DNA of 63,583 nucleotides, filler included, from Octopus bimaculoides (lineage: Eukaryota), in the NCBI RefSeq assembly GCF_001194135.2. It is 4 parts of 4 records of this genome, joined end to end, with 100 filler letters (N's around TTAATTAATTAA, not from the genome) between each part and the next. Parts side by side here need not be neighbours in the genome. Positions count along the whole stretch, not along the records: positions 25,620 to 49,950 come from NC_069001.1; positions 50,051 to 62,050 come from NC_068981.1; 2 more parts are not named here. One strand, given 5' to 3'. This document shows, in pieces, positions 44,870 to 61,964 of this stretch. Position numbers and translations under genes: made by a program. Numbering within the stretch: the first letter of the stretch is position 1; the number at the start of each line of letters is the position of its first letter. The notes under the pieces are model-generated. The model had not been told where the DNA came from and did not search any database. It saw only the letters and a list, made by a program, of their open reading frames with translations.

Positions 44870-45430
44870 TTACAGAAGTATCGATGATAATTCAAGACCC
44901 TACAAGATCTGGGAATGTAAAGATGTAAAGCCTTCCCTTAGAGAAGCATAGGCCCACAAGGGAAGTAGAAGAGAGGATGCCTGAAAAATATCTAAAGGAA
45001 GGAATACTGAGGCAGAGCTGGGAAAACAGGGATAAGCAGGAAAGATGGCCTTGAGTCAACAACAGTGGAAGAAAGTTGTCAATGGCCTATGTTCTATAGG
45101 AAGTGAAGGGCTTAGTATGGATAGGGCAAAGGATAGAAGCCAAACTAATACAGACCACCTCTTCCCAGAGGTAAAAAGGGGTTTGTGCAGTGCCAACACA
45201 CCTACCTTTGAAAACAATATAAATTGCAGAAGTATCAATGGTAATTCAAGACCTTACAAGATCTGAAAAATTAAGGACTTCCCTTAGAGAAGCATAGGCC
45301 CACAAGGGAAGTGGAAGAGAAGATGCAGGGAAAATATCTGGAGGCAGGTAGGGCTGGGAAAACAGGGATCCAATTTAAGAGTAGTAGAAAAGACAGCCTG
45401 GAGTCAACAAAAGTTGTTGATGGTCTTTAC
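44870..45430 (+). repeat. Diverged tandem duplication (~355-bp offset) resembling RTE-like LINE 3' ends
   Basis: CTTCCCTTAGAGAAGCATAGGCCCACAAGGGAAG identical in both units. Confidence 0.75.
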
Positions 45431-45505
45431 TCAAGAGGGAGCAAAGGGGCTTCAATAAATGAACACATTATATGAGACACAAACATTATTATGTAAGGCA
45501 CAAAG

Positions 45506-45759
45506 GCAATGAGCTGGCAGAATCGTTGTCCCCTCCATGTTTAGCCCCTTGTGGGCAATAAAGAAATAAGAATTGTTAGCACGCCGGGCAAAATGCTTAG
45601 TGGTGTTTCGCTTGCCGCTATATTCTGAGTTTAAATTCCGCCATGGTCGACTTTGCCTTTCATCCTTTTGGGGTTGATGAAATATGTACCAGTTACATAC
45701 TAGGGGCCAATCTAATCAACTAGCACAAAATTTCAGGCCATGTGTCTATAGTAGAAAGG
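45506..45759 (+). mobile_element. SINE with 21-bp TSD, carrying a nested 41-bp SINE tail
   Basis: TSD ATTATTATGTAAGGCACAAAG at 45485-45505 and 45760-45780; inner insert 45528-45568 flanked by AGAATCGTT / AGAATTGTT. Confidence 0.85.
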
Positions 45760-46669
45760 ATTATTATGTAAGGCACAAAGTCTCTCTTGCCTGTGTTTGT
45801 CTTGCTACAAAATAAATTGTTTTGCTGATATTTGGTGCCATAGTAGGGCTACACTTAATTCCTTATATATAATGTAGCGAAATTCCTATGAAACCGACAG
45901 CAAACTGGAATATTCTCTGTGGATTAATGTCGATTTATGGAACAACAATAGGAACAGAATAAATTCTATAGGATGATCAGGAATTTATCTAAGAGATGTG
46001 AAACTACTTGTGTTCAGTGATTTGGAAGAGCAGATTCTTACAGACATTTCCAAATATCCTGGTGATTCCAACTCATTTATAAATGAATGGCAAGTGAGTG
46101 TTTACACATGCACAAATAGATATACACACACATATACACAAACACACACATATACACAAACACACACATATACACAAACACACACATATACACAAACACA
46201 CACATATACACAAACACACACACATATATATATACATATACAGAAAAGTGGGCATTAAAATGATAAAAAGAAATACACACACGGAGATTCATGCATACAG
46301 ACACACACACAAACACACACACAGATACATACATATACACAAATTTCTGGTGTAAACAGCAAGGAAGCTACAGAAGTACTCAATACTGGTTGGGAGCATG
46401 GAATAATGTTTCCACTAGGAATTTCTCGTTCTTCATCCTCAGACCTGAGAATGAGGAATGAGATAATCTGAATAATCTGATAATCCGATAATCCGATAAT
46501 CTGATAATCTATCTGAGATATATATCAGAGCATCAATGTCCATTGTCCATGCTGGCATGGATCGGCCAGTTCAACTAGAGCTAGCAAGCTGGGGAGCTGC
46601 ACCAGACTCCCAGAGCAACGTGAAATGAAGTAGACAGATAAAAGATAAAAGCAATGATGGTGACAGTGG

Positions 46670-46701
<32 letters not shown>

Positions 46702-47025
46702 CAATGACGACAACAATGATGATGATTATGATGATATAAAGACAATGATGACAACAATTAGAAGACTATGATTTAAAAAAAAAGACTGCTCAAAAGCACT
46801 GTGCTCTATGCATCCCAGGGATTGAAACCACAATCTTAAAATTGTGAGTGCAACACACTAATCACTGGACCATATACACACATATACATTCAGATGTACA
46901 TGTATGTATGTTGTTAGCAAATTAATATGATGCAAACACACATATACACACACACATAAGTATGTACCTATGTTGTATTGTATACATATGTTACCGATTG
47001 GCTACAGTTAATACAATTTCATATG

Positions 47026-47060
<35 letters not shown>

Positions 47061-47256
47061 ATGCTACCAATTTTACACACCTAATAAAATGTATTTCATA
47101 TTATACACACACATACACACACAGGAAAGAGAGAAAGTGTGTCTATATGCATATAAATATATATATACATACATATACATATATATACACACACACATAC
47201 ATACATAATTATATGCTACAAATTTGACACACCTAAGATGTATTATACATATAAAA

Positions 47257-47310
<54 letters not shown>

Positions 47311-47359
47311 TTACAAATGTAACATACCTAATAAGATGTATTTCATACACACATACACA

Positions 47360-47419
<60 letters not shown>

Positions 47420-50067
47420 CACACACAGGAGTACTTGTATATAACTATATGTATGTGTGTTACCAATTTAACATAGCTAATAAGATGTATTTTTATCATG
47501 GAATCCATGAAGTAATAGAATTTCGCAGAATATTATTACACCACCATAGTAGAGGATGGAACTGTTCCAAGTTCTAAGCAATGGAAGAGTCCAATTATAG
47601 TAACACTAAAATACAGAAGTATCAATAATGCCATTTTATTGATCTTTTCTCACAAAGCTCATTTTTTTTTTACTTTCTCTATTTTTTGCTAATTTTTTTG
47701 GAGTGGTTTTTTTTTGTGTGTATGTTTTCTTTCTATGCATGTCGCATAAAATGATGAAAACAGAAGTAGCAGACCAAATAACGTTGGTAGCAGACCAAAT
47801 AACGTTGGTAGCAAACAGACCGTGGAAGCAGCTAAGATGTAGGGTACCTATTTACAGCCAGGTGGACAGAGCTAGTGAAAGTTTTGTTTATGAGATCTTG
47901 TGTCTGTGACTGCCTCGTATTACAACTGTTCAAGTTGTAGAAAAAGGGTTGCGCAGTTAAGAAGCTTACTTTGTAACCATGTAGTCTAGTAGTTTTGAGT
48001 TCAATTGTACTGTGTGGTACCTTGGGCAAGTGTCTTCTATTATATCTCCGGACCAACCAGAGACTTGAAGGAATTTGGTAAACAGAGACTGTGTGGAAGC
48101 CAGATAGATAGATAGATAGATAGATGAGTGTGTGTGTGCTTTAATCCAAAATGGAGATGAACACCAATTTCTCTGAGATCAGGTTGAAAAATTGTTAAGA
48201 TATTTTAACATGAAACCAATGGTAGCCTTCATACACAAATAAATAATCTTTATCCACCAATGCTATCTTGAACACTCATAAAAGAATTTCTAGGTGCAGG
48301 CATGGCTGTGTGGTAAGAAGCTTGCTTCTCAACCACATTGTTCTGGGTTCAGTCACACTGCATGGCACCTTGGGCAAGTGTCTTCTGCTATAGCCTCAGG
48401 CCGACCAAAGCCTTGTGAGTGGATTTGGCAGATGGAGACCCGTAACTTAGCAGTTCGGCAAAAAAAACCGACAGGATAAATACTAGGCTTACAAAGAATA
48501 AACCCTGGGGTCGATTTCTTCGACTAAAAGGCGGTGCTCCAGCATGGCCGCAGTCAAATGACAAACAAATAAAAGAGTAAAAGAATCTGCAAACAAGTAA
48601 AATATTTTGCCTTTTATGCAGAGTAATCAGAGTAACCTCCGTAGATTTATTGAATTAGGTGCATATTTTGCCATAAAAGGAAAATGTTGCTATCAATTTA
48701 TTCAAGGTAGGCAATGCCTACCTTGCGTATCTAGGCAGCACGTCCCTAGTATACCTATATATATATATATATATATATATACATGCTTAATCCAGAACCA
48801 TGTGATTGGGAAGTAAACTTCCTACCATACAGCTATACCTGCACCTGTGTGTGTGAGTGTGTGTGTGTGTGTGTGTGTGCATGTGCGTGTGTGTACGTGA
48901 TTTTTGTCTCCTTCGCAACACATCACAGCAGTGATGACAATGAGAGAATGATTGATGATGACAATGGTGGTGACGATGATGGTGGAAGTGGTGGTCATGA
49001 TGATGACAAAGCTGGTGATGATGATGATGGTGGTGGTGGTGGTGGTGAGGGTAGTGGTGATGGTGATGACAGCAGTAATGGTGATGATGGTAGTGATAAT
49101 GATGATGGTGACGACGACGACAGTGGTGATAGTGATGACGGCAGAGGTAGTGGTGGTGGTGGTGGTGATGACAATAATGCTGGCTTTAGGCCATGCATTT
49201 CGTGTGGCATCTTGGAGAGTACAAATGGAATAAAAATAGCTCAACAGAGAAAGAGAGAGAGAGATAGAGAGATAGAGAGTGAGAGAGAGAGAGAGGGGGG
49301 AGAGATAGGGAGAAAGAAAGAGTAAAAGTTGGAGAGTGTGATGTGCTGGAAACTTTCTTGAATTACTATTGGACCGTTAACATTATTATTATTATTGCTG
49401 TTGTCATCATCATCATCATCATCATCCTCATCATCATCATCATTATTATTGTTGTTGCTGTTGTTGTTGATGTGATGGTGTGAAACGTTTGAAGTATTGA
49501 TCCAACTGTGTCATGTTAATGTTAAACAGAAGCACTATTGACATTTTGTTAAATTCATTTGTTTCAACTTTCTCGCAACACATTACCGAACACTCTGCAT
49601 TCTCTCTCTCCCTCTCTCCCTCTCTCTTGCTCGCTCTTCTCATCTCTTCTCTGGTGGTATTTTGGTGGCTGACTCTAAGAACAACAACAACAATAATAAT
49701 AAAAATAATAATAATAATAACAATCACATACATCTTCTCACCAACCTCAAAAAGTGTAGAAGTTTTTATGCTTAATTTTTGGGAGTTTTTTTTGGAGGTT
49801 TTTTTGGAGGTTTTTTTTTTTTAATGTTCAGAAACGGTGAATTTACCATCTTCGTTTTCCAATGTCAATGTTAGCATAATTAACGCAACACATTTCAGAA
49901 GATGTTAGTTTTCTTTTATTATTATTTTGGTTCCTTGTTTGTTTTTTGGGNNNNNNNNNNNNNNNNNNNNNNNNNNNNNNNNNNNNNNNNNNNNTTAATT
50001 AATTAANNNNNNNNNNNNNNNNNNNNNNNNNNNNNNNNNNNNNNNNNNNNTATATATATATATATAT

Positions 50068-50105
<38 letters not shown>

Positions 50106-51085
50106 GTATGTTTGCCATGGACCTGCTGAGAAAGGGGAAATAAATACACACATCCAGAATCTTATCTTACGAGATATAAAACAAACCCCCGACATTGCTA
50201 ACCACCAGATCTTAGTTTCAAATATTTCTTCAATATGAAAAGCCGACATGTTTGCCTTAGCTGCGAAAGTAATTTGTGATTGTTGGAACAAAGTGAATAT
50301 CAAGATTTTTTTCAAACTCTTGTTTTTTCTTAATACCAACCTACAACCGTACAGAGGCATACACAAATACAATATTATATACATATTACCCATATGTGGA
50401 CACGCACAGACACAAATATGTGTGTATGTATATATATATATATATATATATTTGGATTTCTGTTTGTGGCAATGCTTTTAATGTCCATATTCATGTTATA
50501 TACGGCTATGTTCGTTATTATTCATACTCATATATTTCCTTCAGTTTTAAATTAATGTGTTAGTTCGGGTTATATTATCTTTAAAACTAAATACACTCTT
50601 TCATCCCAACCACTCCAAATATTTATATACATACTCTCCGATATGACATTCCATATATGCGTGTATGTGTGTATGTGTGTGTGAGAGAGAGAGAGAGAGA
50701 AGAGTGAGACAATCAGACAGACACAGAGAGAGAGCGAGTGTATGTGTGTTTGTATGCGAGTTTATGTGTGTGTTCTTGTGTACTCGAGTCAAAATATTTA
50801 TATAATTCCTACCCATACAAACGTATATGTATACATATGTATGTGTTATGTATGTATATGTATTCGTATAAATGAAATGCACAGTATCTCAAAATACCAC
50901 CCATATTCCAAAAAATGAATTTTTCGGACATCTGCACTAGAATTTTAGAATTTCAGCAGTAATTTTGGTGACCACACACACGCGTACATAAGCATACACC
51001 TCACACAATCACGCGAACAAATATACATTTACATATATGCATAATTATTTATACATATACATGTGTATGTAAGTGTTTTTATGCC

Positions 51086-51147
<62 letters not shown>

Positions 51148-51619
51148 CTTCTGTATTTGTTTTGCAACATCCCTGATATGAAACTGTGTGTTGAAACAGA
51201 TATTGATATATTTCGGAAGAATCATATTTTTGGCAATTGAATGGACTAAACTGAACAAGAGGAGACACGTGGATCAAAAGAGTCACTGAAAAGTCTACAG
51301 GATATGTATCAAAGGACATTATATAAGAATAATAATGATCCTGAAGTGAAGACCAAGTATATAATGTATGTATTCGAAACTCCGTAGCGCTCCACTAGCA
51401 ACTATTTCTGTCTTGTATGGATAAATAACCAATCTTTCTAGGCTATTTTCTTACCAACCACATGGTTCTGGGTTCAGTTCCAGTGAGTGGATTTGGTATA
51501 TGGAAACTGGAAGCGCGGAGTAGATGAAACGGGGACAACTGAAGTAGGGGTATACTCTTTGTGTTGTATGTCTCATTTCTCTGTGTTTTTTTTTTTCTCA
51601 TTGTGTTTTTTTGGACTGT

Positions 51620-52500
51620 TTTTTTTTTGTCATCATATTGTCTCAAATGTTCATTTAGTCTCTCCGCAATGCTTCTAGATGTCTCACCTATGTATATCAT
51701 GCTCTCGTCTTTACAAGCACCTTCTATGCACCTTATGCTGTAGACTACATTTCTAGTTCTACAGTTAGTGCTAGAGTTAATCTTACAAACCATGCAGTTA
51801 TCATCGGTGCTTGTGGTATTCTCAAAGGAGTACGTCCTACATAGTTGTGATCTGATGGAGCTCACTGGCTTTTCAGCGATCTTAATGTTGAGTTTGGCCT
51901 CCTTCAGAGCTTCCCTAAATCTACAGGCTAGTTCTCCATGGGCTGTGGCCTCTACAAACATCACTCTTTGATATTTGTCGGTCTTGTACCACGTGTTCTT
52001 CCTGTTTGCTTTGTCACAAACACTTTGTATTCTATTCCAATCTTTACTTCTGTATCTAGGACAGGTACCACTGGTTTCATTACATGTAATGCTATCTAAC
52101 TTCTTTCTAGCCCACCGGTATACCCGATCCCTATCTTTTTGATCATATCCAGAGAACTGCCTGCGATGCATGAAGTTCTGTACATGTTTCTTTGTTTTAT
52201 AGGTTTTGCATATTGGGGATACGTTATTCATTATCCTAACTAAGTTTGCTATCAGTATGTTGATTTTCATGTTGTGCGACGGAGCTGAGTTCTTGTGAAC
52301 AACATATTTAGAAGCTATGATTTTCATGTAATAGGTGTGGAGGAGCAGCACTTTGTTGTTCAGTATCAAGGATAGGGAGTCTATTGTTAGGGTGTTAGGG
52401 TGCTTAGTGGAGTAATCTATAGTTAACTTGATATTTGGTGGATGGAGTTAGCTACGCGCTGGATGTTATCCATTATGCTCCTCTCGGTTTCTACATTACA
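51620..52500 (-). mobile_element. Penelope-like element fragment (RT C-terminus, Cys linker, GIY-YIG endonuclease)
   Basis: NNRLPILD (shifted frame), YMKIIASKYVVHKNSA, QFSGY, CMVC, NVVYSIRC...YIGETSRSIAERLNEH. Confidence 0.88.
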
Positions 52501-52564
52501 GTTACAAGAATTATACCTACCTATATATATATATCTATATATATATTATTTTATTTATGCGCCC

Positions 52565-52857
52565 TTTACAAGCCAAGCCAGGCTCATGAGCCCGGTTTCC
52601 CAGTTTCTATGGCGTATGTGTTCCCCCCAGCTGGACGGGACGCCAGTCCATCGCAGCGTTACTCAAGAAACAGGAAGAAAGAGTGAGAGAAAGTTGGGGC
52701 GAAAGAGTACAAAAGGGGTCGCCACCACCCCCTGCCGGTGCCTCAAAGAGCTTTAGGTGTTTTCGCTCAATAAACACACACAACGCTCAGTCTGGGAATC
52801 GAAACCACGATCCTCCGACCGCTAGTCCGCCGCCCTAACCACTGGGCCATTGCGCCT

Positions 52858-52860
<3 letters not shown>
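52565..52860 (-). mobile_element. tRNA-derived SINE (third family)
   Basis: Head TGGAGGCGCAATGGCCCAGTGGTTAGGGCGGCGGACT..GGTTTCGATTCCC. Confidence 0.85.
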
Positions 52861-52895
<35 letters not shown>

Positions 52896-53060
52896 GTATA
52901 TATATATACACATACACTAACACACAAGCTGAACCCTTCATTCAAGATCCACATAGACTTATATGTACGTCAGTATCCATGCATGTATGTGCGTCCGTAC
53001 CTGTTTATGTTAGTATGCGTGTATGTTTGCATGTGTATACATAAATACATACGTATGTAA

Positions 53061-53091
<31 letters not shown>

Positions 53092-53095
<4 letters not shown>

Positions 53096-54916
53096 GTCAT
53101 TCCATAAATAATGCGGTTTTTTCAATTGTGTGAACTAAAAGTAGGAGGAGGATGGGATAAAATACCTGCACCAACTTGCTATAAAGGCAGGCAGTAATTT
53201 TACCTTGTTCTTATTCTTACTGCAATTCTCTTGTCGTTTGAACGTTTTGCTAGTGTTTCCTGTGTCATTTGTTGAATTGTTGTATTGTTGCGGTGAGTTG
53301 AGGTTGTTTTGCAGTTGCTTTTGTTAAAAAAACTGCTTATTGCTTTGTTGAAGCAGCTTGTTTTCAATTCCCCACTGCGGGGGAGTTATTGTTATTGTTG
53401 AACTGTGCGGCTGTAAGCCAATTATGTGGGGCGTAAGCCCAAATTTTTCTGTGTTCGGCGTTTTGCCGTAAATTGTGTTTTGTAAAAACAACATCATGGA
53501 ATCGCCATTGAGTTCAATGGAGTCACCAACTCAATTAATCATTGATATGCCTGTTTTTGTAACAGGTGAAGAGAAAAAAGAATCACCGGTGGTGTCGCCA
53601 AAACTGTTAAACTTTGCCGAGGCAGCAGGAAAGAAGGAGAGAAACATCAACACGGATAAAAGTGACTTTAAAAAGTTTATGTCAATGTTAAAAAAGGAGG
53701 GGACGGAAATACAAGTAGCCCCCTCCAATAGAAACAACCGAGAAAGTAAATAGAAAAAGAATTATCAACAAAACCTATAACGTGGAGAAAAAATGAATAG
53801 ATAAAACTGAGGAAAAATTTATCGAAAAAAACATCAGACAGATATGATCGGATATAAGGTATATAACTAGAGGCAAAATATTTGGAACGGTGGAGGTGAG
53901 GTTTACATCAGAGGAGGTGGCCAGGCGGCACGCTTCTGAAATTTTGAGAACCGTAATGTCTTCCGCTTTGTCCTATCATTCGATTTCTTTATATTTTCAT
54001 ATTTTGTGAATTTTAATCTCATATTTATGTTTATAAACATTCGTTCATCTGACTCCAAATCAGATTGTGTTGTCCCCTTCTATGTTGTTCCCTTGTGGGA
54101 AATATAAAATCAACTTATTCTTAGTGCACGTTCTGAACAGTGCAGTTCGATTTTAACAGTTATTTTTCAAAGCTATAATGGAAGTGACAAAGAAGCACAT
54201 TTGGCATATTTTGCTTTATGAGTTCAATAAAGGCAACAACGCAACGGAACGTGCGAGGAATATAAATGCAGTATATGGAGATCGGACATAAGCCAGTATC
54301 AGCTGTGGTTCCAGAAATTCCGAGCCGGAAACTACGGTCTAAAAGATTAGCCTCGTCCTGAAAGTTCTGTAGGGGCTCGACGACGACGTCCTGCAAACCC
54401 TGGTGGAACAAAATTCGATCGTAACTATTGAGAAACTAGGAGAGAAGTGTAGATTTGGTCATTCAACCATTCATCGACACGTGCGTGCCATCGAAAAATA
54501 ACTATCTTTGGTTTCAAGACGAAAGGGAATTCTTCCATCAGGATAATGCTCAGTCAAATGCAGTGAGAATGACATTCGAAAGGCTGGAGCAGTTTGAATG
54601 GCAAGCGATGCCCCACCCACCATATTCGCTGGACATTGCCCCATCTAATTATCGTTTATTCTGCAGTCTTCAGAATCATTTGGACGGGAAAAAATATGAA
54701 TTCTGTAAACAAGGTCAGAACAGTAGCGGGGGAGTGTTTTGCGTCACGGACGAGTGAATTTTGCAATAGGGCTCTTGCAAGTCTCCCAGGTAGATGGAAG
54801 AGCATTGTAGAAAATGAAGGAGAGTATATTTTGGACTAAAAAAGAACTTTGTTTATCTTAATTTTGGAAAATAACAGAAGTATTTAAAAAAATGTGATAT
54901 TTATGGGATGACCCAA
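53092..54916 (+). mobile_element. Internally deleted mariner transposon with a nested insertion
   Basis: TIRs TTGGGTCAT(T/C)CCATAAATA flanked by TA; transposase relic 54178-54839 (HILLYEFNKG HTH; FHQDNA; HPPYSLDIAPSNY). Confidence 0.9.
53220..54113 (+). mobile_element. 894-bp nested non-LTR-type insertion (5' leader, ORF1-like fragment, 3' tail)
   Basis: 10-bp TSD CTTATTCTTA at 53210-53219 and 54114-54123; MESPLSSMESP.. and IRYITRGKIFGTVEVRFTSEEVARRH peptides; 3' end resembles the SINE tail. Confidence 0.75.
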
Positions 54917-54924
54917 TATATATC

Positions 54925-55218
54925 ATGGACTCTCCCGTCGTTTGACGATGTATGAGGGTCCGGCAATTTTTTGCTGAACAACCACACAGATAATTGGTTT
55001 ATAGTGATCAAATTTTCAAATAAGGTCACTCCCTCCATCAAATCATGATTGCCTGTGCAGGTGCACCATGTGCCGCATGCAAGATGACGAAACGATCGGA
55101 GAGAAACGTGAAATGAAGACCTTTGCTCAAGATCACAAAGCAACGCCCGGTCTGGGAATGGAACCCATGATCTCGTAATCATGAGTGCAACACCCCAACC
55201 ACTAAGCCATGCGCCTCA
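54925..55218 (-). mobile_element. tRNA-derived SINE
   Basis: Head TGAGGCGCATGGCTTAGTGGTTGGGGTGTTGCACTCATGAT..GGTTCCATTCCC. Confidence 0.8.
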
Positions 55219-55663
55219 TATATATATATATATATATATATANNNNNNNNNNNNNNNNNNNNNNNNNNNNNNNNNNNNNNNNNNNNNNNNNNNNNNNNNN
55301 NNNNNNNNNNNNNNNNNNNNNNNNNNNNNNNNNNNNNNNNNNNNNNNNNNNNNNNNNNNNNNNNNNNNNNNNNNNNNNNNNNNNNNNNNNNNNNNNNNNN
55401 NNNNNNNNNNNNNNNNNNNNNNNNNNNNNNNNNNNNNNNNNNNNNNNNNNNNNNNNNNNNNNNNNNNNNNNNNNNNNNNNNNNNNNNNNNNNNNNNNNNN
55501 NNNNNNNNNNNNNNNNNNNNNNNNNNNNNNNNNNNNNNNNNNNNNNNNNNNNNNNNNNNNNNNNNNNNNNNNNNNNNNNNNNNNNNNNNNNNNNNNNNNN
55601 NNNNNNNNNNNNNNNNNNNNNNNNNNNNNNNNNNNNNNNNNNNNNNNNNNNNATATATATACA

Positions 55664-55699
<36 letters not shown>

Positions 55700-55959
55700 T
55701 GTATGTATAAGTATGTGTATGAAATTGATATTTAATCTAATCTAGTATATTCCAATTACGGATAATATTTTCCTCGTATCTCGTGATTTCTAATCCTTTC
55801 ATGCAAATCCTACATTTTTATAAATTTCACTTCAGAGGGATTTATATCAGAAAATTATTTGTAACTGCAAAGAGTAACTAATTAAATATGTGTGTGTGTG
55901 TGCGAGAGAGTGTGTGTATGTATACATATATGTGTATCTGTGTGTGTGTGTGCGCGCGC

Positions 55960-55994
<35 letters not shown>

Positions 55995-55997
<3 letters not shown>

Positions 55998-56323
55998 GCA
56001 TATATGGGTACAGGACGTCACCAATAAGAAATACGAAAACAGATGAGTTCAATACGCAAACAACGAGAGAAACAAGTGGAAAACAGGACAAGTAACATAA
56101 AGAACGACCTTTCATCAGTAGTCGGCTGTCTATCTACTCCTCATTTCGAGCATTAAACTATAAATGAGGAGTAGATAGACAGCCGACAACTGATGAAGGG
56201 TCATTCCTTATGTTACTTGTCCTGTTTTCCATTTGTTTCTCTCGTTGTTTGCGTATTGAACTCATTTTTTTTCGCATTTCATGTTGTTTACTGTTGGTGA
56301 CGTCCTGTACCCATATATGCATG
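55995..56323. repeat. Foldback inverted repeat, ~155-bp arms and 15-nt loop
   Basis: Arms 55995-56146 and 56162-56323 are near reverse complements; loop CGAGCATTAAACTAT. Confidence 0.92.
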
Positions 56324-57009
56324 TATATATANNNNNNNNNNNNNNNNNNNNNNNNNNNNNNNNNNNNNNNNNNNNNNNNNNNNNNNNNNNNNNNNNNNNN
56401 NNNNNNNNNNNNNNNNNNNNNNNNNNNNNNNNNNNNNNNNNNNNNNNNNNNNNNNNNNNNNNNNNNNNNNNNNNNNNNNNNNNNNNNNNNNNNNNNNNNN
56501 NNNNNNNNNNNNNNNNNNNNNNNNNNNNNNNNNNNNNNNNNNNNNNNNNNNNNNNNNNNNNNNNNNNNNNNNNNNNNNNNNNNNNNNNNNNNNNNNNNNN
56601 NNNNNNNNNNNNNNNNNNNNNNNNNNNNNNNNNNNNNNNNNNNNNNNNNNNNNNNNNNNNNNNNNNNNNNNNNNNNNNNNNNNNNNNNNNNNNNNNNNNN
56701 NNNNNNNNNNNNNNNNNNNNNNNNNNNNNNNNNNNNNNNNNNNNNNNNNNNNNNNNNNNNNNNNNNNNNNNNNNNNNNNNNNNNNNNNNNNNNNNNNNNN
56801 NNNNNNNNNNNNNNNNNNNNNNNNNNNNNNNNNNNNNNNNNNNNNNNNNNNNNNNNNNNNNNNNNNNNNNNNNNNNNNNNNNNNNNNNNNNNNNNNNNNN
56901 NNNNNNNNNNNNNNNNNNNNNNNNNNNNNNNNNATATATATGCTTATACATATACATTTATATATTTACAAATATTTATTTTTATTATTTATTTGTTTAT
57001 TTATTTATT

Positions 57010-57067
<58 letters not shown>

Positions 57068-58597
57068 TCGAACAGAAGTTTTTGAAATTGAATGTATGTA
57101 GTAAGAATTTTAAAAAATAACGATTTATTTTTATTTCAGTTATAATATTCGTTCACAATAGCTCTGTATGACAGCAGAAAGCAAAATTTATTAAAAAAAT
57201 TAAAAAAAGTACCATTCGAAGCTAGATGGAACAACAAAGAACACTATGTGTGATGCATGTAGTTTTCACTCTGGTTAAACATTAATTAATGTTTTTGTTT
57301 TTATAACATTAATCTTTCTGTCTAGGTTATAGTAAAAAATTTTGCTTCAATATTAAGGATTTCTTGTAAAATCGGAAAACCAACCAGCATTTCATATTCC
57401 TCCGTCAAAATTCAAACATTTCTTCCTTTACATTTTATGGAACTTTCATCTTTAATTATCCTCCTATTCAACCATGGAAGATGGGTCTGTGCTTGATAGA
57501 CATCCGAATTTATTGAGGCGTAAAATCGAAGATTAATATTCAATCCATCACAATCAGCCATAAACTCAAGACTAAATTTCGATTGTAATAGATGTTCATC
57601 AAATAATATCTATATACACTTTTCTACTCTTGGTACAAGGCTTGAAATTTGGAGGGAGGGGCCAGTGGATTAGATCGACCCTCGTCGTCGTAACCGACGG
57701 AGTGCCAACCATTCACCTGATAAAAACGGTTCTGTTTGCATGATGTAATAACTCTATTCAGCAATAAAAACTCGTTTGAAACAACTGTAGTGAATGAACC
57801 AATATCTATCTATTGTTATTTATTTACATATCTATTTACATATCAACGTATAAATATATACATATACACCTAAGTATATAAACGTATATATGTATAAATG
57901 TATTAGCGCATATATATTATATAAAGTATCATATACGTGTGTTTGTATGTACATATATATGTATACATGCATATATGTATACATGTATGTGTACACGTAT
58001 AACTTTATATATGTGCGTCTGCGTATATACTTGCATACATATAGGTATGAGTAAATATTAATGGAAAACAGTTGTATATAATGGCTGATAACTCACCTCA
58101 ACACACCCTAGCCTGTTAAACAAACATTTTACTTTTTTCTTTTTCAGTTTCAGGTCACCCGGCCACACCATACACGCCCCACTTCCAAGCATATTCCTTT
58201 CCTTATAAATACATACATGCGTATTCAAGTTTCCTTTGAAATAAATGGCTTTTTATCTTTGCTGTATTTGTTGGATACATTTTTATTTTCTCAAATAATT
58301 TCAATTCGAGTTTACAAACGTGGCGTGATATGGAAGCAATATGTGATACTATCGTATATCGTGTAGTTGTTTCAGTCATTCGACTGTGGCCATGCTGGTG
58401 CAATGCCTTGAAGGATTTTAGTCGAACAAATCGAACCCAATACTTTATTATTATTATTACTATTATTTTTTTAAAGCCTTGTACTTAATCTATCGACCTC
58501 TTTTGCCGAACGGAGACGTAAACAAACCAACACTTGTCGCTAAGTGTAATAAAATTCAGAAGGCAAATATTTTTATAATATAATAGTGTATATGAAC

Positions 58598-58880
58598 GTA
58601 AAGACAGACGAAATACTGCTAAGCGTTTTGCCCGGCGTGCTAACGTTTCTTATTCCTTTATTGCCCACAAGGGGCTAAACATAGAAGGGACAAACAAGGA
58701 CAGACAAAGGAATTAAGTCGATTAAATCGACCCCAGTGCATAACTGGTACTTATTTAATCGACCCCGAAATTATGAAAGGCAAAGTCGACCTCGGCGGAA
58801 TTCGAACTCAGAATGTAAAGACAGACGAAATACCGCTAAGCATTTCACCTGGTGTGCTAACGTTTCTGCCAGCTCGCGCC
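58598..58880 (-). mobile_element. Head-to-tail SINE dimer (tail-bearing SINE abutting AGAAACGTTAGCAC)
   Basis: Junction at 58650/58651. Confidence 0.85.
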
Positions 58881-59776
58881 TTCCACCAGACGACAATAGA
58901 CGCAGAAGAAAGGCAGTTCTCTCCTACTCACTACTTCACCAGGAGCGATTCCGGAGACAGGACGGGGTAGTGAATCTACAATAAACAAGTACTATTTCTA
59001 ATGACGGTCTCCCAGTACGGCCACAGCCTCTGGTTGAAACCAGTTAGACGATACGACTGTATGTATGTATGTATGTATGTATGTATGTGTATTATAATAT
59101 TTCTGGTGTCCTTGACTTTTCACTCAAGAATTCTTATACGCAAATATATATTCGTATGCGTGCGTGTATGTATAGTGGTGGGGAGGTGAGCAGATGTAAT
59201 CTACATGTAAAAAGACATAAAGTCTTGATAGATTGGTACTTATAAAATGTTTCTTTCGCGTTTTGACAATAATTATTAATGAAAACATTTCCTCAATATT
59301 AGACAGTTCTCAGTGCAAGTGGCTTACAGCTACCCGCCAGTTTGTCACCAAAGAAATGCACCCATGGAACCCGAGAATTTAATGAAATTATTATGTTATC
59401 GCAGTTTTCTTCAGAGTAGCAATTAATTGCAGAGTACATAATTGTTTTAGTGAGATTTTTCTGATGGTTTTTGTTGTTGTTGTGTGTGTGTTTTTTTGTT
59501 TTTTTTTAGTTATAAATTGCAAATTTTCATTGATTTTAGAGTTTTTTAAAATTCTGGATTTTAGATCAGTATTTTCGCCCCAAAAAGAAGAAAAACATTA
59601 CTTTACTATAATTTTTATTTATTTATTTATTGAATCTATATGTTCGTGTTTATTAATCCATACCTTTTTTTTATGCAGTTTTATTTTATTTTAGTTTTCA
59701 TTTATTTTTCTGTTTTTTTTTTTAACATCCTTCTTTCCTGTTTGTTTCGGCACGTGAATATTTCCTTTGAAGTTAC

Positions 59777-59842
59777 CCAGAAAAATATTGGTTGCTACCG
59801 AGAGAGAAGCTTCATTTGTCATTAATGTCATATTAGATATTG
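59777..59842 (-). CDS. Candidate phase 1-1 exon (AISNMTLMTNEASLSVATNIFL), possible stalk of the EGF gene
   Basis: Acceptor TTCCTTCTTTTTTTTTAG, donor TGG|GTAACT, 66 nt open; separated from the EGF exons by an unsized join. Confidence 0.45.
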
Positions 59843-60074
59843 CTAAAAAAAAAGAAGGAATTAATCAAAAAAAAAAATAGTTAATAAGGATTCTCTTATT
59901 ACCCGGTAAAGTTTGTTATAGGTGAGTAAACGTGCAAATGCGTATATTTATGTGCACATGTGTGTACGAATATTTATGTGTATTTATGTGTGTGTAAAAG
60001 ATATGAGTTTTACTGCATGTATATCTGTACGATATTCTTAAGCTTGTGTGTAAATTAAACGTATCCTTTCATTC

Positions 60075-60955
60075 TTTTACTTGCGCCAGTCATTTTACTA
60101 CGGCCATGCTGGAGCACCGACTTTGGTCAAATCGAGCCCAGCGCTTATTCTTTGTAAGCCTAGTACTTATTCTATCGGTCTATTTTGCTGAATGCTTAGT
60201 GGTATTTCGTCTGCTGTTATGTTCTGAGTTCAAATTCCGCTGAGGTAGACTTTGCCTTTCATCCTTTCGAGGTCGATAAATTAAGTATTAGTTACGCACT
60301 GGGGTCGATGTAATCGACTTAATCCCTTTGTCTGTCCTTGTTTGTCCCCTCTATGTTTAGGCCCTTGTGGGCAATAAAGAAATAAGAATCGTTAGCACGC
60401 CGGGCAAAATGCTTAGCGGTATTTCGTCCGTCCTTACGTTCTGTGTCCAAATTCCGCCGAGGTCGACTTTGCCTTTCATCCTTTCGGGGTCAATAAATTA
60501 AATATCAGTGAAACACTGGGGTCGTTGTAATTGACTAGTCCCATCCCCGTAAATTTGTTGCCTTTCACTCTTTCGCTCTTTTAATTGTTTCAGTCATTTG
60601 ACTGCGGCCATGCTGGAGCACCACCATTAGTCGAGTAAATTGACACCAGGACTTTGTAAGCCTAGTACTTATTCTATCTATCACTTTTGCCGAACCGATA
60701 AGTTACGAGGTCGTAAACAGACCAGCGTCGTGTGTCAAGCGATGTTGGGGGCGGACAAACAGACACACAAATATACATATATATATTTATATACGACAGG
60801 CTTCTTTCAGTTTCCGTTACCAAGTCCACCCACAAAGCTTTGATTGGCCCCCATACTATAGTAGAAGACACTTGCTCAAGCTGCAACGCAGTGGGACTGA
60901 ACCAGGAACCATGTGGTTAGTTAGCAAGGTACTTACCACACTCCTGCGCCTAGAA
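60075..60955. mobile_element. Cluster of nested and adjacent SINEs
   Basis: Several SINE heads and tails; tail/AGAATCGTTAGCAC junction at 60384/60385. Confidence 0.85.
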
Positions 60956-60990
60956 AATGTTATTATTTTTATTATTGTTGTTGTTGTTGC

Positions 60991-61036
<46 letters not shown>

Positions 61037-61154
61037 TCTAAGGCTGCTAGCTGGCAGAATCGTTAGCACATTTCACGAAATGTTAGCACGCTGGTCCATG
61101 TGATCAACTCTCCCTTCCCTACTAATTCCAGGACTTGTGCCTATAGTAGAAAGG

Positions 61155-61214
<60 letters not shown>

Positions 61215-61384
61215 TTTATTGTTATTATTATTCTAGTATATGCAGCAGGCTTGACATTTTTAAAGTGCTTGTAGAGTTCATTGACCGTAGTACTTGACCG
61301 GTGCGAATTTTAAAGACCACGAAAAGATGATGATTATAATAATTCTTTCTAATCTAGTCACAATGCCCGAAATTTTTGGGGTAG

Positions 61385-61772
61385 GGACCAGTCGATTAGA
61401 TCGACCCCAGCAAGCAACTGGTACTTAATTTATCGACTCCGAAAGGATGAAAGGCGAAGTTGATCTCGGCGGAATTTGAACTTAGAACGTAAAGACAGAC
61501 GAAATACCGCTAAGTGATTCGCTCAGCGTGCTAACGTTTCTTATTTCTTTATTGCCCACAAGGGCCTAAACAGAGAAGGAACAAACAAGGACAGACAAAG
61601 GTATAAAGTCTATTACATCGACCCCAGTGCGTAACTGGTACTTATTTAATCGACCCCGAAAGGATGAAATGCAAAGTCGATCTCGGCGGAATTTGAACTC
61701 AGAACGTAACAGCAGACGAAATACCGCTAAGCATTTCGCCCGGTGTGCTAACGTTTCTGCCAGCTCGCTGCC
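61385..61772 (-). mobile_element. Head-to-tail SINE dimer
   Basis: Junction at 61541/61542, same register as 58650. Confidence 0.85.
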
Positions 61773-61964
61773 CTTTTGTAATAATGACGATGTTCATGAT
61801 GATGATGATGACGCTGATGACGATTACGACATTGATGATGAGGACGACGACGACGATGATGATGATGACGATGTTGATGACGATGCCCACAACGACGGTG
61901 ACGATGATGGTAATGATAATGGACACGATGCTGCTGCTGCTGCTGATGATGATGATGATGGTGG

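Follow-up and report, generated by a model that had tools for sequence, protein, structure and literature searches.

In the genome of Octopus bimaculoides, SINE copies of one family, here called family A, have inserted independently of one another into the heads of related SINEs at one and the same nucleotide. Landings favour a short motif found widely in the genome, AGAA(A/T)C, and the SINE head is hit especially often without being the sole target. In the reading that we favour, to which we give a probability of about 0.62, the A copies were pasted one by one into older SINE heads by a LINE that itself sits at the head and whose endonuclease probably prefers that site.

Four junctions and the elements that form them

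The window, that is, the whole stretch of 63,583 nucleotides analysed here, contains four places at which the tail of a family-A SINE directly abuts the head motif of another SINE. All four were confirmed by direct reading at the positions first proposed for them, two on each strand, and they are split over two stretches of the window on either side of the spacer joint at 49951-50050 (Table 1). The family names were coined for the present analysis: family A is the SINE with the tail in question, B1 and B2 have their head and body in common with A and end in different tails, and C is an unrelated SINE. Family A has the features by which SINEs are recognised, being short (about 230 bp), non-coding, flanked by TSDs and represented by 13,102 tails. 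A and B boxes in the head can be recognised by eye against the consensus; neither ARAGORN nor Rfam returned a tRNA match for the head. In 486 loci ARAGORN made four low-threshold calls, and no hit of the SINE on a true tRNA gene was seen there. The landing had been described as lying just after the A box, a placement that has to be corrected, as the A-box consensus puts the landing base inside the A box of the SINE head. The element may also resemble the MetaSINE superfamily with its 66-bp Meta-domain after the head. A comparison with two supplements of PMC4824008 yielded no sequence match.

Table 1. Features at the four junctions and the tail-sharing LINE, in window coordinates
Feature	Position	Strand	Remark
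Junction 1, tail/head joint	45568/45569	+	sequence read directly
Junction 2, tail/head joint	58650/58651	-	sequence read directly
Junction 3, tail/head joint	60384/60385	+	sequence read directly
Junction 4, tail/head joint	61541/61542	-	sequence read directly
Junction 1 target SINE, left copy of outer TSD	45486..45505	+	same 20-mer at 45761-45780
Junction 1 target SINE, right copy of outer TSD	45761..45780	+	perfect 20-bp repeat
Junction 1 target SINE, 5' head with 9-bp inner TSD (45519-45527)	45503..45527	+	8/9 match to 45569-45577
Junction 1, 41-bp 5'-truncated family-A tail	45528..45568	+	likely insert; may be an internal deletion
Junction 1, headless right monomer	45569..45760	+	target SINE body and B-type tail
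Junction 2, left monomer	58651..58882	-	full-length family-A SINE
Junction 2, headless right monomer	58594..58650	-	57 bases remaining
Junction 3, left monomer	60191..60384	+	family-A SINE without head and first ~23 body bases
Junction 3, headless right monomer	60385..60555	+	B-type, broken tail; approximate end
Junction 4, left monomer	61542..61772	-	full-length family-A SINE
Junction 4, headless right monomer with tail	61344..61541	-	B1-type; short degenerate outer TSD; approximate ends
Internally deleted LINE of the tail-sharing group	53220..54113	+	ORF1 piece joined to 3' UTR

At junction 1 the TSD-like pair reported around the short tail is present, its 9-mers agreeing at eight of nine bases, although its value as an argument for insertion is ambiguous at this locus alone: two bases are common to its 5' joint, so that junction 1 taken by itself may be an internal deletion. 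The earlier note had overlooked the perfect 20-bp outer TSD that encloses the whole unit. Directly upstream, at 44940-45420, lie two copies of a direct repeat of ~350 bp.

Landing sites across the genome and through time

Throughout the 2.34 Gb searched, 2,729 of 13,102 exact 17-base tails directly precede the 11-base head motif, a lower bound of 20.8%. Intact heads, by comparison, number 43,672. They make up 5.4% of the seven-base motif sites, which total 811,142, and correspond to a share of about 1e-5 of the positions in the genome. The 3' flanks of the tail copies are not random, and the head motif follows them far above chance. Reading of 91 distinct copies, drawn from the first 100 places listed at the start of contig C1 and perhaps atypical, placed 35 in heads and 56 elsewhere. 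Heads account for 35 of 67 AGAA-type landings and for 75 of 5,932 AGAA sites in 430,828 bases of flanks, an enrichment of about 85-fold, with the other 32 of 67 AGAA-type landings in the read sample lying outside heads by hand count. The tail running into head sequence also appeared in loose ends of independent DNA runs (four runs, locus L411), so the joint is not an assembly artefact; an empty-site allele at L411 was seen in none of these four runs, where the alignment was swamped by repeat contigs. Near-identical copies flank assembly gaps at L123-L124, L010 and L120 and are likely assembly duplications, which calls for caution with counts.

Most copies outside heads also lie on AGAA(A/T)C. 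Landings outside SINEs have a TSD in 42 of 61 cases, with a median length of 16 bp, and the first bases of 41 such TSDs are A36 G32 A29 A36 (A/T)39 C21. Non-head SINE landings have no preference past base +6, unlike the partner LINE described below. Two fixed sites in the unrelated family C are heavily over-hit, with 256 and 265 exact junctions, and these landings carry clear TSDs and 5' microhomologies; the A copies found there do not stand apart as a separate lineage. Relative to the number of sites on offer, heads receive ~3x as many landings as the first C site (2,729/43,672 vs 256/12,986, obtained with patterns of different stringency), and both receive far more than ordinary sites. Loci L427-L486 were sampled at the two C sites. 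One A copy with a 21-bp TSD (L004) sits in a LINE remnant, which we take to be of R4/Dong type. For the B families, B1 and B2 TSDs start with an AT-rich triplet, and at L028, L160, L168 and L220 B elements have landed at the 5' end of other SINE heads or just ahead of it, so that the two SINEs form a head-to-tail pair ~220 bp apart.

A second fixed landing site within SINEs is body position +34, 33 bases further into the body, where 863 tails genome-wide directly precede the local motif. The targets belong to many SINE subfamilies, and the landers (loci L337-L366 and L397-L426) are the youngest copies. The left monomer of these dimers has a 5' part that clearly derives from the target and is about twice as diverged as the body (46/1051 vs 58/2965, p=6e-5). 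Of 46 variants of the target, 11 are duplicated within 15 bases after the site vs 3.75 on shuffling, and duplication sometimes extends 60 bases further on; sequential insertion thus shows more cleanly here than at the head. A third tail variant, differing at the closing base of the hairpin, lands mostly on AC repeats and is young (L031-L060); 67 of the first 100 listed start with ACAC, by hand count and with a pattern that hides head landings. An older landing class uses an AT-rich motif. Divergence falls from 6.1% in the AT-rich class (n=12) to 4.7% in the AGAA class (200), 2.3% on AC repeats (16) and 1.6% at +34 (36), and both body types agree (AGAA 4.7% and 4.5%; +34 2.1% and 1.4%). The landing motif shifted over time, from AT-rich to head, AC repeat and +34, following age more than lineage.

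The proposal that the SINE inserts into its own relatives at one base is supported by these data, with the qualification that its specificity is partial: the target is a short motif hit genome-wide, and sister lineages with a nearly identical tail use other landing sites, so that the interpretation first given is supported in part.

The partner LINE family

LINE-type tails directly before the head motif gave four genome matches, of which three are LINE 3' ends and one is a SINE; three of the four have non-SINE upstream sequence and two have RT homology. With one of these LINE ends as query, the five closest copies, 88-93% alike, each occupy a SINE head at the same base, and the heads belong to different subfamilies; the query copy and L499 were found through the head flank, the other three regardless of flank. 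The next relative (about 78-84%; 83% to the query) sits on a degenerate head look-alike, while the other 24 among 30 lie at different places or could not be read. By the measure of target specificity in PMC4494074, more than 20% of flanks in one sequence, all five copies at 88% or above lie on heads. This head-targeting sample consists of five copies, all decayed. In two cases, L528 and the separate LINE L530, the 5' end of the insertion could be placed, and TSD-like repeats of 15-17 bp flank each of them. Divergence of ~4-6% per copy (pairwise values halved) fits the 4.7% age of the AGAA wave.

The LINE and SINE tails are alike over their last ~45 bases and form the same small hairpin, which in the SINE alone is not significant (z=-0.64); the LINE has no homology to the SINE head, and two genome searches with 22 and 7 matches returned no LINE with the exact SINE tail. 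In L529 the zf-CCHC domain (an ORF1 zinc knuckle) scores above the cut-off, next to RVT_1 at E=6e-12 and Exo_endo_phos at E=8e-4, the last below the cut-off; in the relative L291 the endonuclease and RT domains both exceed it. The search for a partner LINE has thus been answered by an APE plus RT family of L1/Tx1 type with a similar tail, whose close copies share the landing nucleotide of the SINE. Tx1 elements carry an ORF1 zinc knuckle, as L529 does, and both the domain content and the target specificity would suit a putative place of the partner in the Tx1 clade. Among 120 listed homologues of the associated LINE protein there was no named Tx1 reference, the best named match being Argonauta hians at 61%.

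The LINE in the window is a relative of the head-targeting LINE and belongs to another family. It lies in a mariner-like remnant (53091-54400) between the copies of a 10-bp TSD (53210-53219, 54114-54123), and among its relatives, whose tail is near that of A, the coding capacity includes an APE-type endonuclease and an RT. Several related LINE copies occupy the same mariner site genome-wide, which recalls Tx1-Mar. The tail-sharing group as a whole comprises many low-copy families, each with its own recurring 3' flank (L367-L396, L504-L527). One LINE-tail search found 0/54 on heads with a pattern whose last position excludes heads; since several tail searches carry this bias, their head shares were not used. 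In B1 and B2 tails (for example at 61344-61375) the five-base loop of the A/LINE hairpin can be made out by eye with the stem reversed, and on this likeness the B elements may use the same LINE group.

Origin of the dimers and comparison with known systems

At two loci (L097, L157) a target head is followed by a 17-bp inner TSD and then a complete A copy, giving two heads, and at seven junctions the sequence passes abruptly from the target head to a point within the A body; most dimers are single-headed. The 97 right monomers comprise 60 of B1, nine of B2, nine of A and 19 unclear cases, and the left-monomer variants mirror those of free A copies. CpG decay is higher in right monomers (186/1072, 17.4%) than in left ones (119/1052, 11.3%; p=7e-5) and like that of free B1 (91/465, 19.6%; p=0.31). 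Descent of all dimers from one amplified dimeric master, the outcome that the earlier note had set against its own interpretation, is ruled out by the mixed left variants, at least three right-monomer families and this unequal CpG decay; the dimers are not one dimeric SINE family with fixed monomers of equal age. Private variants common to both halves number 16/98 in the first 20 bases vs 8.8 shuffled (p=0.004) and 57/684 beyond the TSD vs 34.4 shuffled; sharing is thus ~2x the shuffled level inside and beyond the TSD alike, and the excess beyond it could stem from conversion or from a mutation rate that varies locally. Left and right variants were also compared by a Mantel test, which was uninformative (r=-0.006) and whose positive control failed as well. 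Inserts are present in 3/30 B1 tails. Trimers or stacked insertions at one head were seen at L109, L119, L157, L189, L421 and L528, including a LINE that entered an A-hit head.

Two rival accounts would dispense with targeted insertion as the main source of dimers. Most dimers could be A-B transcripts moved as units by way of the right monomer's tail, with targeted insertions a minority; good outer TSDs around many whole dimers, the 60 of 97 right monomers from one family, equal non-CpG divergence (left 170/3936, right 201/3997; p=0.14) and a 5' part no older than the body in head-class dimers (63/1458 vs 419/10035, p=0.78) all speak for this. We nevertheless think it quite improbable, as the halves differ in CpG decay, the left variants match free A copies, there are at least three target families, inner TSDs and head-plus-jump forms occur, and LINE copies sit at the same base. 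Moreover, in eight truncated dimers that lack the head and contain no gap, the cut end is in no case marked by a clear outer TSD (best six bases), whereas the truncated monomers L029, L051 and L059 have one. Some dimers may still be unit copies. Template switching in a single event, in which the enzyme, having copied a B RNA almost as far as the 5' end, switches to an A RNA at its 3' end through four to six bases common to both, would likewise give outer TSDs and mixed partners, and has been invoked for hybrid SINEs in the part of PMC4824008 available; under it both halves should be equally old and an inner TSD should be absent, contrary to the CpG decay, the older 5' part at +34 and the double-head copies, and it leaves the same motif at ordinary genomic sites unexplained, which makes it highly improbable.

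A different rival concerns the choice of target. The address could be inherited in cis, the read-through flank of a source copy pairing with matching nicked DNA so that a weakly specific endonuclease is enough, an account that we hold to be unlikely. Copies chosen by a body marker alone (504 in the genome) lie on the +34 motif in 23 of the 28 readable among 30, two of their landings on the +34 motif fall outside SINEs and have TSDs, and the marker is linked to the site within one tail variant (p=6e-4), yet the marker is absent from 16 of 27 +34 landers. The slippage repeats in the tail are not the same in all landing classes, and 8/17 generic targets have C at base +6 vs 17% in the background (p=0.004), as in the head. 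Read-through pairing lifted the efficiency of R2Ol from 12% to 96% (PMC6530143, in the portion available), and nearly identical elephant SINEs that differ in their ends also differ in how their TSDs begin (PMC6007223, likewise in part). Against these observations stand the landers at the two family C sites, which form no lineage of their own, a LINE that hits the head without homology to it (though its own source could read through too), and the fact that landing class follows age in both body types, 7% of 200 AGAA landers being as young as +34 landers. That the read-through flank serves as an RNA guide, by which lineages with the same tail gain different addresses (own head, +34, AC repeats), is likewise doubtful. 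Pure read-through guidance was rejected as the main reading, weakened as it is by the LINE copies at the head and by the age pattern: a landing class that tracks age across lineages favours turnover of site-specific LINEs over guidance by read-through RNA, and such turnover would also explain the pattern more simply. A few bases of RNA-DNA pairing probably help, whether enzyme or RNA reads the site.

One-by-one insertion by a head-sited LINE could proceed as follows. Since a rare helper LINE whose tail resembles that of the SINE occupies this very base, its enzyme likely aims both LINE and SINE there. The LINE protein would bind the 3' hairpin common to the SINE RNA and the LINE, its endonuclease, the candidate source of landing-site specificity, would nick the target at the motif and then prime reverse transcription, and four to six bases of RNA-DNA pairing may assist the priming. 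The aim would be looser in trans, leaving about a third of SINE copies in heads and the majority of the rest on AGAA(A/T)C. The head at the end of the new cDNA resembles that of the target, so the 5' end could join the target's own head by homology; a single head would then be left, and the dimer would look seamless. The shift of the SINE to AC repeats and the +34 site would be due to LINE families from the same group that came later and preferred other sequences. The strong over-hitting of the two family C sites does not follow from this account, and the concentration of one body lineage at the +34 motif would also fit inheritance in cis.

In this light the SINE family is carried by a site-preferring LINE and at the same time serves it as a target. 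It offers a natural system, comprising thousands of events that can be dated and a succession of at least four target motifs, in which the shares of endonuclease and RNA-DNA pairing in target choice become testable, a matter relevant to LINE-based gene insertion. A probable route to scarless dimeric SINEs also emerges, and such dimers, being scarless, can be misread as a SINE family. The pattern suggests that SINE heads are safe, self-renewing targets, and the insertions may disable the promoters of rival copies. Should the address be inherited through RNA, a family that lands in itself would lock in self-targeting and form scarless dimers through homology at both ends.

The open literature held no account of this octopus system or of a SINE targeted to the head of its own family, subscription papers and Repbase lying outside its scope; for Octopus vulgaris, an annotation names 13 L1-Tx1 families with recent activity and, in the part available, has no mention of "target" or "nested" (PMC13282606). 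Context for the comparison of SINEs is given by PMC6007223, PMC4824008, PMC4758252 and PMC3747384, each in part. AfroSINE and other RTE-mobilised SINEs likewise include near-identical SINEs with different TSD starts; there, as far as the available text of PMC6007223 goes, one or two bases are tied to terminal microsatellites and the partner is an RTE, compared with five to six bases, fixed sites inside SINEs and an L1/Tx1-type partner in the octopus. Pairing of read-through RNA with the target is described for R2Ol and R1Bm in the available parts of PMC6530143, PMC6795142 and PMC6007223, and flank-aided 5' joining for R2 in work cited by PMC4494074. In these elements 3' pairing between RNA and target together with 5' homology sharpens insertion, which offers a model for the seamless octopus joints; they are autonomous, experimentally tested rDNA elements, whereas the octopus case concerns a non-autonomous SINE and is argued by inference.

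Sequence-specific Tx1 families listed in the part of PMC4494074 available include Tx1L in Tx1D, Keno in U2, and Kibi and Koshi in microsatellites. The octopus LINEs are similarly an APE-type group in which each family has its own target, such as the mariner site or other fixed motifs; unlike the listed families, the head-targeting LINE, a putative Tx1 member with a presumably site-specific enzyme, enters a SINE promoter region. The closest precedent is the crocodilian SINEU with its Tx1-Mar LINEs, which have in common a preferred site in mariner, where the SINEU preference amounts to 90%, 23% and 13% and tandem copies were read as sequential insertions (PMC4494074, same part). In both systems a SINE and a LINE of Tx1 or, in the octopus, L1/Tx1 type meet at a common preferred site in another repeat. 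Unlike SINEU, with its mariner target and snRNA head, the octopus SINE has a head that looks tRNA-like by eye (no snRNA match was found at 58400-61900 of the window) and takes the head of its own family as target, its insertions heal into seamless dimers, and several sites have been used in succession.
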